A DNA stretch of 63,493 nt, filler included, from Chlamydiia bacterium (GTDB lineage Bacteria; Chlamydiota; Chlamydiia; Chlamydiales; FEN-1388), in the NCBI GenBank assembly GCA_903848235.1. It is 5 parts of 5 records of this genome, joined end to end, with 100 filler letters (N's around TTAATTAATTAA, not from the genome) between each part and the next. Parts side by side here need not be neighbours in the genome. Positions count along the whole stretch, not along the records: positions 36,157 to 57,163 come from CAINFV010000168.1; 4 more parts are not named here. One strand, 5' to 3'. Of this stretch, positions 52,668 to 57,263 are shown piece after piece. Each line of letters opens with the position of its first letter. Position 1 is the first letter of the stretch. Under the pieces are notes generated by a model. It ran no database searches and was not told the origin of the DNA. It worked only from the letters and a program-made list of their open reading frames with translations. A program made the position numbers and the translations under genes.

Positions 52668-53906
52668 CTATTCCTTGTTTACGTCTTCTTCATGAAGAGA
52701 CTTGATTATTTCGTTATAGGAAATTGTCAGTTCTTCTCGGCCTTCAGCCGGTACGCCAAAAGCATCCAGACAGCGGGTAAAAACATCTCCCGCTTCCAGA
52801 TCATCGAGGGTTTTATCTTCCTCGATCGTACTGATCGCGAGGTCCATGACACGCCGGTTTTTAATCCGTCGGATTTCCATGGCGGAACCGGCCATTGCTT
52901 CATCGATCTTCTCGCGCAGGTTGCTGATGATGTCGGTGCCGGTATATTCAATCTCAAGCCATGCGGTGCTTTCTTCTTTTTTCAGCTCTTCCAGCCTTGC
53001 ATGGATATCATCCAGAGACCCTACAATGCGGACCAGTTTTTGAAAACACGGCACGGGGAGCTCTTGGATATGTGGCGTAGTGCTGTTGAATTCAATGAGC
53101 ACAACCTTCTTTTCATGAGTCGCTTCTCCATAGCTCATCGGGATAGGCGAACCACAGTAGCGTATATGCTTCGAGTGGCCGACCACTTGAGGGACATGCA
53201 GATGGCCGAGGGCGAAATAATCGATTGTTGAGGGAAAAACTTCCTCAGCTATATGCGCCAGCGATCCAACATAAAGCTCTCGGACACCATCACCATCAAC
53301 CGTCTTACCGCCTGCCGTAAAGAGGTGTCCCATGGCAATGATGGGAATGTCATCATACCCGACGTTTTTGAGTTTGTTTCGTTTCTGCTCTGCAATACCG
53401 CAAACATCCGCGTAATGTTTTCCCAGTTCCTTAACAAGCTTAGCATTTTTCTCGTCGATTGTTTCTCCTGGCTCGACCGTCCTGATATCTTTATCGCGCA
53501 AATAAGGCACTGCGCAAACGATGGCTTCCGGCTTGTCATTTGTGCGAAGAACGAAAACCTCGTCATCCAAGGCATCGGTCATAGAGCCGACTACATACAC
53601 ATTCAGTGCCCGCAGCAGTTCCTTGGGGGCGTTCAGAAATGACGGGGAGTCATGATTCCCGGCAATGACCACAACATGACGGCAGCAGGATGCAGCAACA
53701 CGGCAGAGAAATCGATAATAGAGCTCCTGAGCCCTGTTACTTGGCGTACTAGTGTCAAATACATCACCGGCGACAAGTAGGACATTGATTTTTTCATCTT
53801 CAATGGTCTGAGCCAGCCAATCCAGAAAGGCTGAAAACTCTTCATAGCGTTTCTGGCCATAAAGTGAGCGGCCTAAATGCCAGTCTGATGTGTGGAGGAT
53901 TTTCAT
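52668..53906 (-). CDS. sbcD: SbcD/Mre11 nuclease
   Basis: HTSDWHLG, AGDVFD, GNHD and GHLH. Confidence 0.95.
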   Translation of the reverse strand: MKILHTSDWHLGRSLYGQKRYEEFSAFLDWLAQTIEDEKINVLLVAGDVFDTSTPSNRAQELYYRFLCRVAASCCRHVVVIAGNHDSPSFLNAPKELLRALNVYVVGSMTDALDDEVFVLRTNDKPEAIVCAVPYLRDKDIRTVEPGETIDEKNAKLVKELGKHYADVCGIAEQKRNKLKNVGYDDIPIIAMGHLFTAGGKTVDGDGVRELYVGSLAHIAEEVFPSTIDYFALGHLHVPQVVGHSKHIRYCGSPIPMSYGEATHEKKVVLIEFNSTTPHIQELPVPCFQKLVRIVGSLDDIHARLEELKKEESTAWLEIEYTGTDIISNLREKIDEAMAGSAMEIRRIKNRRVMDLAISTIEEDKTLDDLEAGDVFTRCLDAFGVPAEGREELTISYNEIIKSLHEEDVNKE

Positions 53907-55789
53907 GATTCTTTAGCTCTATAGGCCTGTTGAGGGTGGTTAGGAATTTCGGGAAATAAACATTCAAGCTCACCATTTTCAATCATTTTTGAAATGTAAC
54001 GCTTTCGCAAATGATCCGGATCGCGCTGAAGAATTTGAACTAATTCTGGGAGTTTTAGTGGTCCTATGGCGCACAATTGTGAGATAACATTCTTTATTTG
54101 TTGCACAGAGGTTCTTTTCCCAATTTTTTGTAGAGACTGAACTAACTCCTCTGGTAAAGGAGGAAAATCTTGAGGTAGGCCTCGTATTGGAGATGTTATG
54201 TTTGAAGTTTCAACAGCAATGCCCGGAGTTTGGACGCTTATGCCCGGAGCTTGTGTGCTTATGCCCGGAGTTTGGACGCTTATGCCCGGAGCTAACAGTT
54301 TAGAAGTAGGGAGGTAATATGTGGCGTTGCCTCCTCCTTTTTGTTCAAGAAGTCCGAGATCGCGCAGTCGTCTTAGATGGCCGCTTGCTGTCAATGTATC
54401 AACGAAATTGATGTTGCGATAGTCGGCGTTTGTCATCGCTCCCATTTCCCGAACGGCAATGAGTGTGCGAGCTTCGTCATCTGATAGATGGTAGGACGTA
54501 AAGTTTCCGAGCCATTTGATATCGTCCTGATCAAAAAAGTGATGAGTGAGGAGGGTGAGAGCGAAGGAATTGCCTGCCCGATCAGATTCGAGAAGGGGAG
54601 TCGAAAGATTTGACTTTCTCATCTCATCGCGCATTGTCCGAATACCCGTTCCTTTCGTCTCTGCCAAATTCAAGTCTTGCATGACCTTGGCAATGCGTCC
54701 ATTTCGTGTCATGGAGCCGGGCAGTCCCAATTGGTCTTCCGGCTTTAGTGAATAGCCGGCATTACGGAATTCAATGCGATTGGCATATCGAAGAATTTGG
54801 ATGGGTTGATTCACTCGATAATCGCGGTGCATGATGGCGTTGCAAAGCGCTTCTTTGATGACGATGCGTGGCATCAAGGGAACGTCACGACGGTAGACTT
54901 CTCCTGGAGCCATCACAAAAGCTTCGGGAATATCGCGCATGATGGCGTTGAGAATGCGTGGAAAAGCAAGAAGAATAGATTCTCGAAACTCTATACCCTT
55001 ATAGCGTCGTTCAGGATCTGGTACCCATTCTCGTCCCTCAATGATTATGTAATCAATTCGCATAGACATAGGGAAGAGGCGCCTGAGCGACCATTCTTTC
55101 CCAAATAAAACAAGTCCTGCCAGTGTAGGCAGCAGCTCTTTTTTCACTCGTCCTATGGCACCGAGCGAAAGAAGTAGTTCCTCGTCACAGAAACTTAGCT
55201 CTTGCGCACTCGGTTTTGTCTCTTTGCGCAACTCTCGGTAAGTAGCGATAGCTTGAGGGTCAAAATCATCCCAGGTGGCTTCCTCGATAGTATTTTCGTC
55301 AAAGTTTCGTCTTGATCGAAGTTGATAAAGAGTGTCGAGATCATCCTTTGTGCACAGCAAATCTGCGGGACCAATTCTCCGATATGTGCCTCTGTCTAAT
55401 CCTAGGCTCTTGATATAGACGGGCTTTTCGTGAGGTTCCGCTTCAGGAATGTATACGAGTAGCAAAATGCCTTGAGGATGTTGTATGACCTCAATTATAG
55501 GGCGGATTGAAATACTGAAGTTTTGTCGGCAGAGCGATACTATTTCATTCTGGAGCTTGTCTGGGTCATGGACACCCGTTACTGTGTAACGAGGAGTGCT
55601 TTGTGACTCGTTCTTTGTGAGCCCTAAAACGAGGTAGCCTCCGCCCAACCCCGGCTCGTTGCAGAAAGCACAGATAGTTTCTAAAGCGCTCTTTCCCAGT
55701 TTTTCCGTAGACTTCTTTGCTTCTATTCTTTCGTGTTCGTCAACTTGCTGGAGTAGGTTAAAAAGCTCTTCAAAAGTCATGGAGTTCAT
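53903..55789 (-). CDS. Schlafen/AlbA_2 + HATPase_c_4 + winged-HTH protein
   Basis: IEAKK..ETICAFCN..GGGYLVLG; EALCNAIMHRDY..RNGRIA..ETKGTGI; MTNADYR..LRDLGLL; C-terminal PNHPQQAY. Confidence 0.85.
   Translation of the reverse strand: MNSMTFEELFNLLQQVDEHERIEAKKSTEKLGKSALETICAFCNEPGLGGGYLVLGLTKNESQSTPRYTVTGVHDPDKLQNEIVSLCRQNFSISIRPIIEVIQHPQGILLLVYIPEAEPHEKPVYIKSLGLDRGTYRRIGPADLLCTKDDLDTLYQLRSRRNFDENTIEEATWDDFDPQAIATYRELRKETKPSAQELSFCDEELLLSLGAIGRVKKELLPTLAGLVLFGKEWSLRRLFPMSMRIDYIIIEGREWVPDPERRYKGIEFRESILLAFPRILNAIMRDIPEAFVMAPGEVYRRDVPLMPRIVIKEALCNAIMHRDYRVNQPIQILRYANRIEFRNAGYSLKPEDQLGLPGSMTRNGRIAKVMQDLNLAETKGTGIRTMRDEMRKSNLSTPLLESDRAGNSFALTLLTHHFFDQDDIKWLGNFTSYHLSDDEARTLIAVREMGAMTNADYRNINFVDTLTASGHLRRLRDLGLLEQKGGGNATYYLPTSKLLAPGISVQTPGISTQAPGISVQTPGIAVETSNITSPIRGLPQDFPPLPEELVQSLQKIGKRTSVQQIKNVISQLCAIGPLKLPELVQILQRDPDHLRKRYISKMIENGELECLFPEIPNHPQQAYRAKES
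54208..54292. repeat. 21-bp in-frame tandem repeat, four copies
   Basis: atgcccggag at 54219, 54240, 54261 and 54282; encodes APGISVQ-TPGISTQ-APGISVQ-TPGIAVE. Confidence 0.9.
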
Positions 55790-55798
55790 TTAGAGGCC

Positions 55799-56011
55799 TC
55801 ATGAGTTGGTTGGGGATACTTTAAGTTTTGAATCGTGGGTTTGTTTGAGGAGGATTTGGAGGTCTTCCTTCTTATAGAGGCGATAGCGGTTTATGGGGTG
55901 ACGATGGGTCGTTAGCTTGCCCTCTCTTTCCCAATTCCTGAGCGTTCCGGGAGAAACTCCGACAAATTCGGCAGCAGACTTGATTTGTAAATAGTCCTGA
56001 ATTTTTTTCAT
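55799..56011 (-). CDS. MerR-like/excisionase-type HTH protein
   Basis: YLQIKSAAEFVGVSPGTLRNWEREGKL..RHPINRYRLY. Confidence 0.85.
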   Translation of the reverse strand: MKKIQDYLQIKSAAEFVGVSPGTLRNWEREGKLTTHRHPINRYRLYKKEDLQILLKQTHDSKLKVSPTNS

Positions 56012-56385
56012 CAATCGACGAGGCTAAAGACCGTGACCTTTAGGTCATGGAGGAAGCCTCGCTCCTTAGTTAAGTGTTAAAAATGGGAGGGTTCCCCCTC
56101 TCAAAATGCCCGTAAGGGCCTTGTTACGGAACAAGGTTGACGTACTATGTTCTCTCCCTTCGACAAAGTTATCTGGCGGTTTACGTACATGCATCACGCG
56201 CTTAACCCTTCTGCGTGTTTAAACACATGTCTTAGAGCCTTAAGACTTAGGAAGCATCTCAGGGTAACTATATATTCGCCAGTAACGTGGCACCTTCAAC
56301 GCTTGTCAAACTCTGGTACTTAGTCTGGTCAACATGTGGCTTGGAATTTTTTTCAGGCCTCTCCCTTTAGGGAGGGGTAGTTGAC
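56012..56385 (-). mobile_element. Non-autonomous IS200/IS605 (IscB-type) element with no ORF
   Basis: Minus strand begins GTCAACTACCCCTCCCTAAAGGGAGAGGC and ends with the hairpin CGAGGCTTCCTCCATGACCTAAAGGTCACGGTCTTTAGCCTCG, followed by ATGA. Confidence 0.8.
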
Positions 56386-56401
56386 GGTTACCCTTTTCGT
56401 T
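56150..56401 (-). ncRNA. HEARO/omegaRNA-like RNA with a putative 5' guide
   Basis: Ordered blocks GTCAACTACCCC, GTTGACCAGACTAAG, ACGTT, GAATATATAGTTACC, GATGCTTC, TTAAAC, AAACC and ATAACTTTGTCGAAGG; 3' boundary approximate. Confidence 0.75.
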
Positions 56402-56407
56402 TAAAGG

Positions 56408-56436
56408 ACATTACCAAACCTTGTTAAGCTTTTCAA
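56408..56436 (-). promoter_or_regulatory. Sigma66/70-type promoter with an operator-like palindrome
   Basis: TTGAAA-17 bp-TAATGT with an extended TG; TTAACAA-ggt-TTGGTAA overlaps the spacer and -10. Confidence 0.6.
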
Positions 56437-57043
56437 TAAAAATAATAGTGAAATACGGAAGCAGGGACGATTTTATCGGATTGGTAACAAGCGTATTGAC
56501 GGAGGGTTTTTACTGGTTTCATCTGTTTGTTTTTCCCTTACTAAACAGGGTCCTGCATGCCATCATAACTCTTTCTGTAAGCAAACAATTGGGGTAATCA
56601 TGATTAGGTCTAAGTTTTGAATAAAATGACTTGCTTCGATTTGTGTCATTCGCGAGAGGAGAGAAGGAGGGATATTCTTGGAATCATAAAACCAAGCCTG
56701 ATCTGAGATTTGCCAATAACGCGCTACTACATCAGGGTCTTTCATCCTAAACTCTTTCAAATCCTTGAGAGAGTTGAGCTGGGGTTGATATGGCGCAATT
56801 TTTCGCTTCACTTCGTTATCGAATAGGGAGCAATGGATTTTTTAAATAAAACAAGATGCTGTTTCAGGGGTTTATGGGAAGAATTGGGGGGTGGTGAGCG
56901 GAATATGCTGATCTCTTTAGAAAAAAATCACTACCAGAGAGAACGCCGAGAACACGGAGAAGGAATTGGGCTTGCGCCCCGTCTATAGCCTTTTTTGTTC
57001 TTTTACTCTGTAATCTCTGAGCCCCATTCTTGTTGTAAGTCAT

Positions 57044-57081: not shown

Positions 57082-57089
57082 AAGTTGGA

Positions 57090-57163
57090 TGGAGGTGGAG
57101 AGAATCGAACTCTCGTCCTTGTGAGCCTGAAAAAGTTGCCTCTACGTGCCTAGTGTCTCGATC
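57090..57163 (-). ncRNA. ssrA: tmRNA 3' end (5' part lost in the gap)
   Basis: Minus strand ...CACGTAGA...GGACGAGAGTTCGATTCTCTCCACCTCCA: T-arm and acceptor stem preceded by the tmRNA-like ACGTAGA. Confidence 0.8.
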
Positions 57164-57263
57164 NNNNNNNNNNNNNNNNNNNNNNNNNNNNNNNNNNNNN
57201 NNNNNNNTTAATTAATTAANNNNNNNNNNNNNNNNNNNNNNNNNNNNNNNNNNNNNNNNNNNN
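57164..57263. other. Artificial contig spacer
   Basis: N run with TTAATTAATTAA. Confidence 0.98.

Follow-up and report, generated by a model that had tools for sequence, protein, structure and literature searches.

Transposons of the ISC type insert at a fixed target, given as N/ATGA for ISC1-1_MA, ISC2-1_HM, and ISC2-1_MS (PMC4810608). Like those described there, the element reported here has a 5'-GT terminus, subterminal hairpins, an insertion point 5' of ATGA without duplication, and ends common to oppositely oriented tnpB elements; unlike them, the present copy is without iscB. The main text of that paper uses the term "start codon" 0 times, and what is available of it makes no link between ATGA and gene starts. 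For ISGst5 of Geobacillus stearothermophilus, the accessible text of bioRxiv 10.1101/2023.03.14.532601 describes an IscB omegaRNA that depends on transcription from outside the element, a TAM (TTCAT) that is the reverse complement of ATGAA, and, for ISGst5 and the PATEs (protein-less IS200/IS605 derivatives), an orientation bias relative to the upstream gene. Our element resembles these systems, whose features are a guide taken from the 5' flank, donor-joint cleavage, and protein-less derivatives; that text reports neither start-codon placement nor a donated ribosome-binding site (RBS). Standalone omegaRNAs acting with IscB are cited in PMC9581776; like them, the element comes without an adjacent ORF, and unlike them, it keeps both transposon ends and lies in a 5' leader. 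The Shine-Dalgarno (SD) sequence discussed in the available part of that source is that of isrB itself and not that of a host.

In phage T4 genes 38 and 25, SD and AUG are split by a stem-loop that restores a working spacing, in the accessible text of PMC3014915. The T4 spacings (22 and 27 nt) were experimentally tested; that of our element is 50 nt, its stem is a transposase-recognized end, and its function in translation is putative. A paper on IS605 stem-loops in Borrelia concerns gene 3' ends in the part available (PMC2775950), and the terms start codon, ATGA, and Shine-Dalgarno do not occur in a 2026 review (PMC13565253). N/ATGA targets, outside transcription, PATE copies, and standalone omegaRNAs are already published. 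A search of mainly open literature gave no published statement of start-codon placement or a donated RBS, which the 2009 HEARO and 2021 OMEGA papers or supplements may mention; we likewise found no published counterpart of a start-codon rule coupled to a compensating SD that has moved repeatedly, a variant open to testing. IStrons are group I introns combined with IS605 that splice out, softening their own damage to the host gene. Our element would likewise be a mobile element that softens host damage, with the difference that its proposed fix is translational and that it has no group I intron match.

Results

The window, i.e., the whole 63,493-nucleotide stretch of DNA analyzed (Chlamydiia bacterium, GCA_903848235.1), holds a 374-bp element of IS200/IS605 (ISC) type without a protein at 56012-56385 (minus strand). 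The features of the locus are as follows.

56012..56385, minus strand: whole non-autonomous ISC (IS200/IS605) element, 374 bp, no protein (sister-copy ends; empty-allele joint)
56149..56385, minus strand: HEARO/IscB omegaRNA scaffold (RF02033, 113.9 bits, full model)
56358..56377, minus strand: right-end subterminal hairpin, first omegaRNA stem, common to the TnpB elements of the genome (sequence)
56108..56119, minus strand: small omegaRNA 3' hairpin, which precedes the iscB start in full-length copies (copy comparison)
56079..56100, minus strand: terminator-like hairpin and T-run, candidate omegaRNA 3' end (function inferred)
56062..56068, minus strand: SD-like TAAGGAG at the left-end stem foot, candidate replacement RBS (-7.1 kcal/mol against a generic anti-SD; comparative counts)
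56018..56062, minus strand: left-end stem-loop, with outer stem 56062-56056 pairing with 56024-56018 and inner hairpin 56050-56031 (fold)
56007..56011, minus strand: ATGAA, target motif and host gene start (sister copies; homologue starts)
56386..56401, minus strand: host leader, predicted guide of ~16 nt (role drawn from published IscB biology)
56408..56436, minus strand: host promoter candidate, -35 at 56436-56431 and -10 at 56413-56408 (missed by a scan; position conserved in homologues)
55799..56011, minus strand: host gene, 70-aa MerR/excisionase-type HTH protein

A protein-less IscB-type omegaRNA element of 374 bp with terminal hairpins at both ends had been read from the sequence, and this was borne out. 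The Rfam covariance model for HEARO (RF02033), named beforehand as a check, covers model positions 1-211 at 56149-56385 (113.9 bits against a gathering score of 83; E 9e-23); no iscB- or tnpA-sized reading frame lies inside 56012-56385, and subterminal hairpins with TAAA loops stand at both ends (56358-56377 and 56031-56050). The boundaries were set by sister copies in the genome and by the empty-allele joint 56011/56386; contigs from sequencing run X1 span both filled junctions, and GTCA forms the first bases of all six HEARO matches in the genome. Both ends are kept and are common to the iscB elements on contigs C146, C4, and C268, and the protein is absent, as in PATEs; ISC elements encode IscB, and this one is a protein-less derivative, with a fixed 4-5 nt target beside the insertion and no duplication (a clean 374-nt skip in one contig). 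It is almost beyond doubt, as regards identity alone, that 56012-56385 is a real, well-defined member of a known element family, and it is an ordinary member, of PATE type. ARAGORN found no gene. In-frame fusion of the element to the host ORF is ruled out by stops, and splicing by the lack of a match to any intron family, group I included. The terminator-like hairpin (19/37 short elements versus 1/10 full-length ones) fits a defined omegaRNA 3' end, in which case host expression needs read-through. The bases beside the inner left-end hairpin (56025-56030, minus strand) read TCTT in the subfamily of the element (five copies, all at ATGAA); 52 of 53 ATGA ends from diverse phyla and viruses have C in the fourth place, so that TCTT is an apparent mismatch of DNA guide and target.

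The ATG of the HTH gene directly abuts the element and is followed by a gene with AlbA_2 and HATPase_c_4 domains (53903-55789) and then by sbcD/sbcC. It is the true start: of 21 homologues without an element, 19 align with the protein from its first residue onward and two from residue 2. The empty junction expected upon removal of the element occurs in one contig, from one of four runs (X6, a different study), which joins 56011 to 56386 and skips 374 nt; the shorter side of this joint is 24 nt, below our 30-nt caution. Since this empty allele is ~95% identical in the flank (56386-56594), the insertion is not ancient. A DNA search of 60 relatives gave no orthologous empty site.

The promoter proposed in the sequence-only reading (TTGAAA-17-TAATGT) held up in part: both hexamers are present, 17 nt apart, but score 8/12, and a consensus promoter scan found 0 promoters and missed them. 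TTG(C/T)AA-17/18-(T/C)AnnnT ends 22-34 nt before the start codon in 12 of the 21 element-free homologues (several are near-duplicates), and a homologue in relative G123 has, read by eye, the same 22-nt promoter geometry. Conservation in homologues thus supports these hexamers as the putative promoter, from which transcription is predicted to start near 56401. The native SD-like AAGGG in the host leader (56395-56391) is weak (-4.0 kcal/mol), and the insertion displaces the host RBS by 374 nt. Between -35 and -10 of the homologous HTH promoters (L292-L312), a TTG(C/T)AA-like motif is repeated and conserved and may be an operator. Autoregulation by the HTH protein, if it occurs, would extend to the omegaRNA. 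The 3' part of a tmRNA (57087-57165, minus strand; RF00023, E 7e-13, below the gathering score, cut off) lies ~650 nt upstream of the HTH promoter, and the HTH/AlbA/sbcDC block may be an island integrated at the tmRNA. Positions 57164-57263 are an N-run with a short AT-rich linker, where separate contigs are joined (C168 ends at 57163).

The genome has six HEARO matches: one with a full IscB, one whose iscB carries an internal deletion (C146), and four without a protein. A genome search for iscB, recommended at the outset, yielded the IscB on C268 (440 aa, full length, NF040563 435 bits, RuvC and HNH motifs visible). For the suggested supply of IscB in trans, this full-length protein is a candidate, but whether it is the cognate one is uncertain, because the scaffold of the element shares only 59-64% identity with the five others of this genome (64% with that linked to the C268 IscB). 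The assembly contains no close IscB-linked relative of this scaffold, nor, elsewhere, a perfect guide-plus-ATGA match of at least 7 nt as a self-target. A further iscB, at the edge of C4, runs for 369 aa to a stop, and its omegaRNA lies beyond the contig; tnpA is present as three fragments only, all at contig ends. In the composite elements on C146, C4, and C169, the iscB 3' end is joined to the 3' half of a different omegaRNA subfamily, which suggests nested insertion followed by deletion.

All ten left ends of the family in the genome are followed by ATGA (nine ATGAA, one ATGAT), as had been anticipated with ATGA as the target, and as published for ISC. Nine of the ten precede ORFs of 70-391 aa, including HtpX; as the genome background, 466/6,879 ATGAA sites (6.8%) provide the first ATG of an ORF at least 70 aa long (binomial p 3e-10; this and the other p-values overstate, because copies of a subfamily share ancestry and the effective n is a handful of subfamilies). 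At the exception (C96), the ATG opens a 10-aa frame just upstream of a gene that we take to be infC. A second end type, which leads into a TnpB-like N-terminus (labeled by eye), also targets ATGA and served as a control: none of its six ATGA left ends (four tnpB-linked, two short palindromes; a seventh, followed by ATAC, was left out) precedes an ORF of >21 aa, and none has an SD (Fisher p 0.0009 for the same-genome control). The far side of one of these palindromes opens a 149-aa ORF.

Four right-end stubs of the IscB family (45-137 nt) directly abut ORFs of 285-339 aa. Worn stubs of either end stand directly before gene starts on C7, C102, C37, C96 (second site), C282, and C70 (two); two 45-nt right-end stubs have GGAGA 9 nt before the ATG, and the gene behind one is presumably pheS. 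Short perfect palindromes of two like ends (right-right or left-left), REP-like, occur at C100:4894, C57, and C197. By eye, the elements at C96:15094 and L080 adjoin tRNA-like sequences (just after one, just before another) with no protein start.

Of 151 genomes of the phylum, 14 contain HEARO, counting that of the element. From the 66 matches outside this genome we analyzed 58, and 44 yielded a left end (three junctions were placed and two adjusted manually); 34 of these ends are at ATGA and 10 at ATAA. In nine relatives, 29 of the 34 ATGA ends lie before an ORF of at least 60 aa (background, 53/585), with two of the 29 having an in-frame ATG 4-10 codons upstream, in the flank. Pooled over 10 genomes, 38 of 44 ATGA-target ends precede such ORFs, against a background of 7-9%. 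Placement on start codons is a rule of the family, which the sequence-only reading had missed. In G123, a full IscB element stands at the start of the homologous HTH gene; its scaffold and end sequence differ from ours, and by these the two insertions look independent. The iscB frame of this G123 element ends in the TGA of the host ATGA. Among the loci compared, iscB frames stop in the TGA of the downstream ATGA in L075 and in L086 (G123), or 1 nt before the ATG (L082); translational coupling of iscB to the host gene is possible in L086 and L082. In G176, iscB and then a tnpA-like ORF were seen by eye in one element of ~1970 bp with an ATAA target (L104), a candidate autonomous element.

No SD lies in the last 16 nt of the element. 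TAAGGAG at 56068-56062 is 50 nt from the AUG, and in the predicted fold the 3' arm of the stem ends 6 nt before the AUG; this predicted geometry is that of T4 genes 38 and 25 (SD, stem, 6 nt left, within an effective spacing of 5-11 nt). All seven pairs of the outer stem have changes on both sides among 39 aligned ends, and its cells are paired in 90%, versus 33-39% for slid controls over the whole structure; because the outer stem also occurs in TnpB and ATAA ends, it is ancestral and uninformative on translation.

The SD-like motif, in contrast, is found in 42/44 ATGA ends versus 0/10 ATAA ends and 0/6 TnpB-family ATGA ends, where SD-like means -6 kcal/mol or better against a generic anti-SD (used because no 16S 3' end was found in the assembly), calls in the 44 ends used a fixed window after automatic outer-stem calling by partition functions had proved noisy (28/44), and the end profile was seeded from the same ends, SD columns included. 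All 38 start-codon copies have the motif, and both SD-less ATGA copies are away from starts; four of six non-start ATGA copies keep it. Three copies in relative G122 have no pre-stem motif and instead GGAGG 4 nt before the ATG. A conserved CUUCCUCC can pair with the SD, which is therefore predicted to be only partly open (0.6 in the element; range 0.03-0.83 among scored ends). Retention of AAGGAG as IscB coding sequence is unlikely, as the iscB stop falls upstream of the left end, within it, or at its end, and the motif persists in copies that encode no protein. These sequence comparisons suggest that the left end may replace the host RBS via a split site, a candidate that the sequence-only reading had likewise overlooked.

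A diverse set of 157 further IscB loci (80 from genomes, 77 viral) was examined. The gene end was present in 150 of them, and 86 left ends were obtained once false calls had been dropped by eye (9 + 7) and two duplicates removed. The junction rule favored ATGA. An independent check of the junctions compared each called target with the four bases next to the inner hairpin, and the two covary in 66 of 74 ends under what we take to be the IS608/ISDra2 pairing rule. ORFs of at least 60 aa are opened at 40 of 61 ATGA ends (background, 1,376/5,893 [23%] for any such ORF and 9% for a first ATG). In one multi-copy named genome, only 3 of 7 ATGA copies precede such ORFs, a fraction that speaks for retention as much as for targeting. 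Two annotated plasmid copies were inspected: that on NC_007412.1 ends at the annotated parB start with a terminal SD-like motif, and the other ends 8 nt before the annotated start. SD calls here used exact motif matching, since duplex energy gave false calls on GC-rich ends. Among 46 ATG-type end clusters, 18 have a pre-stem SD only, 14 a terminal one only, 3 both, and 11 neither, where the frequency of such a motif in random windows is 16% and 11%. The two positions tend toward mutual exclusion (p 0.005, or 0.03 when a stricter motif length is required). On the IscB tree, the pre-stem motif is clade-structured (6 steps versus 15 shuffled). Within the pre-stem clade, four separate tips (L149, L191, L205, and L257) are without the pre-stem motif and with a terminal one, and one tip has neither; a cyanobacteria-rich clade is of the terminal type, and a clade of eight has neither SD.

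Discussion

The earlier interpretation is partly supported, and its core idea is largely known, because ATGA targets, protein-less copies, and host-promoter use are already published. Our account of the locus, which on balance we think probable as a whole, combines a PATE-type insertion, a guide made from the host promoter, retention at start codons, and a replacement SD. A non-autonomous ISC element would have kept both TnpA-recognized ends and the IscB omegaRNA and lost iscB, and TnpA (the presumed enzyme) would have placed it in trans 5' of ATGAA, here the host start codon. By analogy with published biology, transcription from the host promoter would provide a trans-acting IscB with a guide that consists of the host leader and is directed against the empty allele. 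Mobilization by TnpA, the guide from the leader, and cleavage of the empty allele are each argued from such analogy and may apply here. The family would accumulate at start codons because a promoter in the right orientation is guaranteed there and the reading frame is unbroken, and separation of the gene from its own RBS would be tolerated because the left end supplies a new SD. In the lineage of the element, this would be a split site (the SD, a left-end stem that loops out ~45 nt, 6 nt, and the AUG); in other lineages, the SD would lie within the last 15 nt. The replacement-RBS step is the one that we infer from motif counts and predicted folds. Against the account stand the 11 of 46 end clusters with neither SD (8 in one clade), a loop-out of ~45 nt that exceeds the T4 spacings, and a terminator-like hairpin upstream of the SD that could reduce read-through.

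The strongest alternative, which we judge unlikely but take seriously, is a dead relic, with no cognate IscB left and no active guide, that persists because it is harmless. The divergence of its scaffold from the other five fits this, as do the damaged or truncated iscB on C146 and C4, the TCTT beside the inner hairpin (almost every other ATGA end has C as the fourth base), and the worn 45-137 nt stubs before four other gene starts. Against it are the full-length, high-scoring HEARO match and the ~95% identical empty allele, by which the insertion is not ancient; the cognate iscB may also be unassembled, repeats being collapsed at contig ends. A dead relic can be compatible with a replacement RBS.

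Somewhat less likely again is survivor bias alone, by which TnpA inserts at any ATGAA, in-gene insertions are purged, and those at starts remain. AAGGAG would then have come down with the left end and play no part in translation; expression of the host gene would be lower, or the gene would restart without an SD. SD use may be weak in the lineage of the element, which we counted for this alternative, together with the lower start fraction in the multi-copy genome and the diverse set than in the relatives, the clade structure of the SD motif, and its presence in most non-start copies. It accounts poorly for three observations: the TnpB-family ends of the same genome share the target and are never at starts, no ATAA end has the motif, and loss of the pre-stem motif accompanies gain of a terminal one. 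Domestication to control the HTH operon (by attenuation or as a translational switch, perhaps IscB-responsive, in which the terminator-like hairpin and alternative pairing of SD and CUUCCUCC set host expression) is very improbable: the hairpin is mostly in protein-less copies, the SD is partly occluded, and the homologous gene of G123 has an element at the same start, but 21 homologues have none, the two HTH insertions look independent in scaffold and end sequence, and the host genes hit are without a common function.

Beyond this locus, we tentatively propose, as a reading that may well be wrong, that IscB transposons with ATG-type targets are start-codon parasites whose ends have repeatedly evolved a replacement RBS, split or terminal. 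If so, the target motif would double as the host initiation codon and thereby give the guide its promoter, insertion would be nearly silent without splicing, and worn stubs would permanently rewrite host translation starts. This would explain why ATGA is so common as an IscB target and how an element that needs a transcribed site spares the host gene, achieving in translation what IStrons achieve by splicing. Its predictions are that one hairpin would serve as a TnpA DNA signal on one strand and as an mRNA spacer on the other, and that IscB ends would be portable ribosome-binding modules that reset host gene expression.
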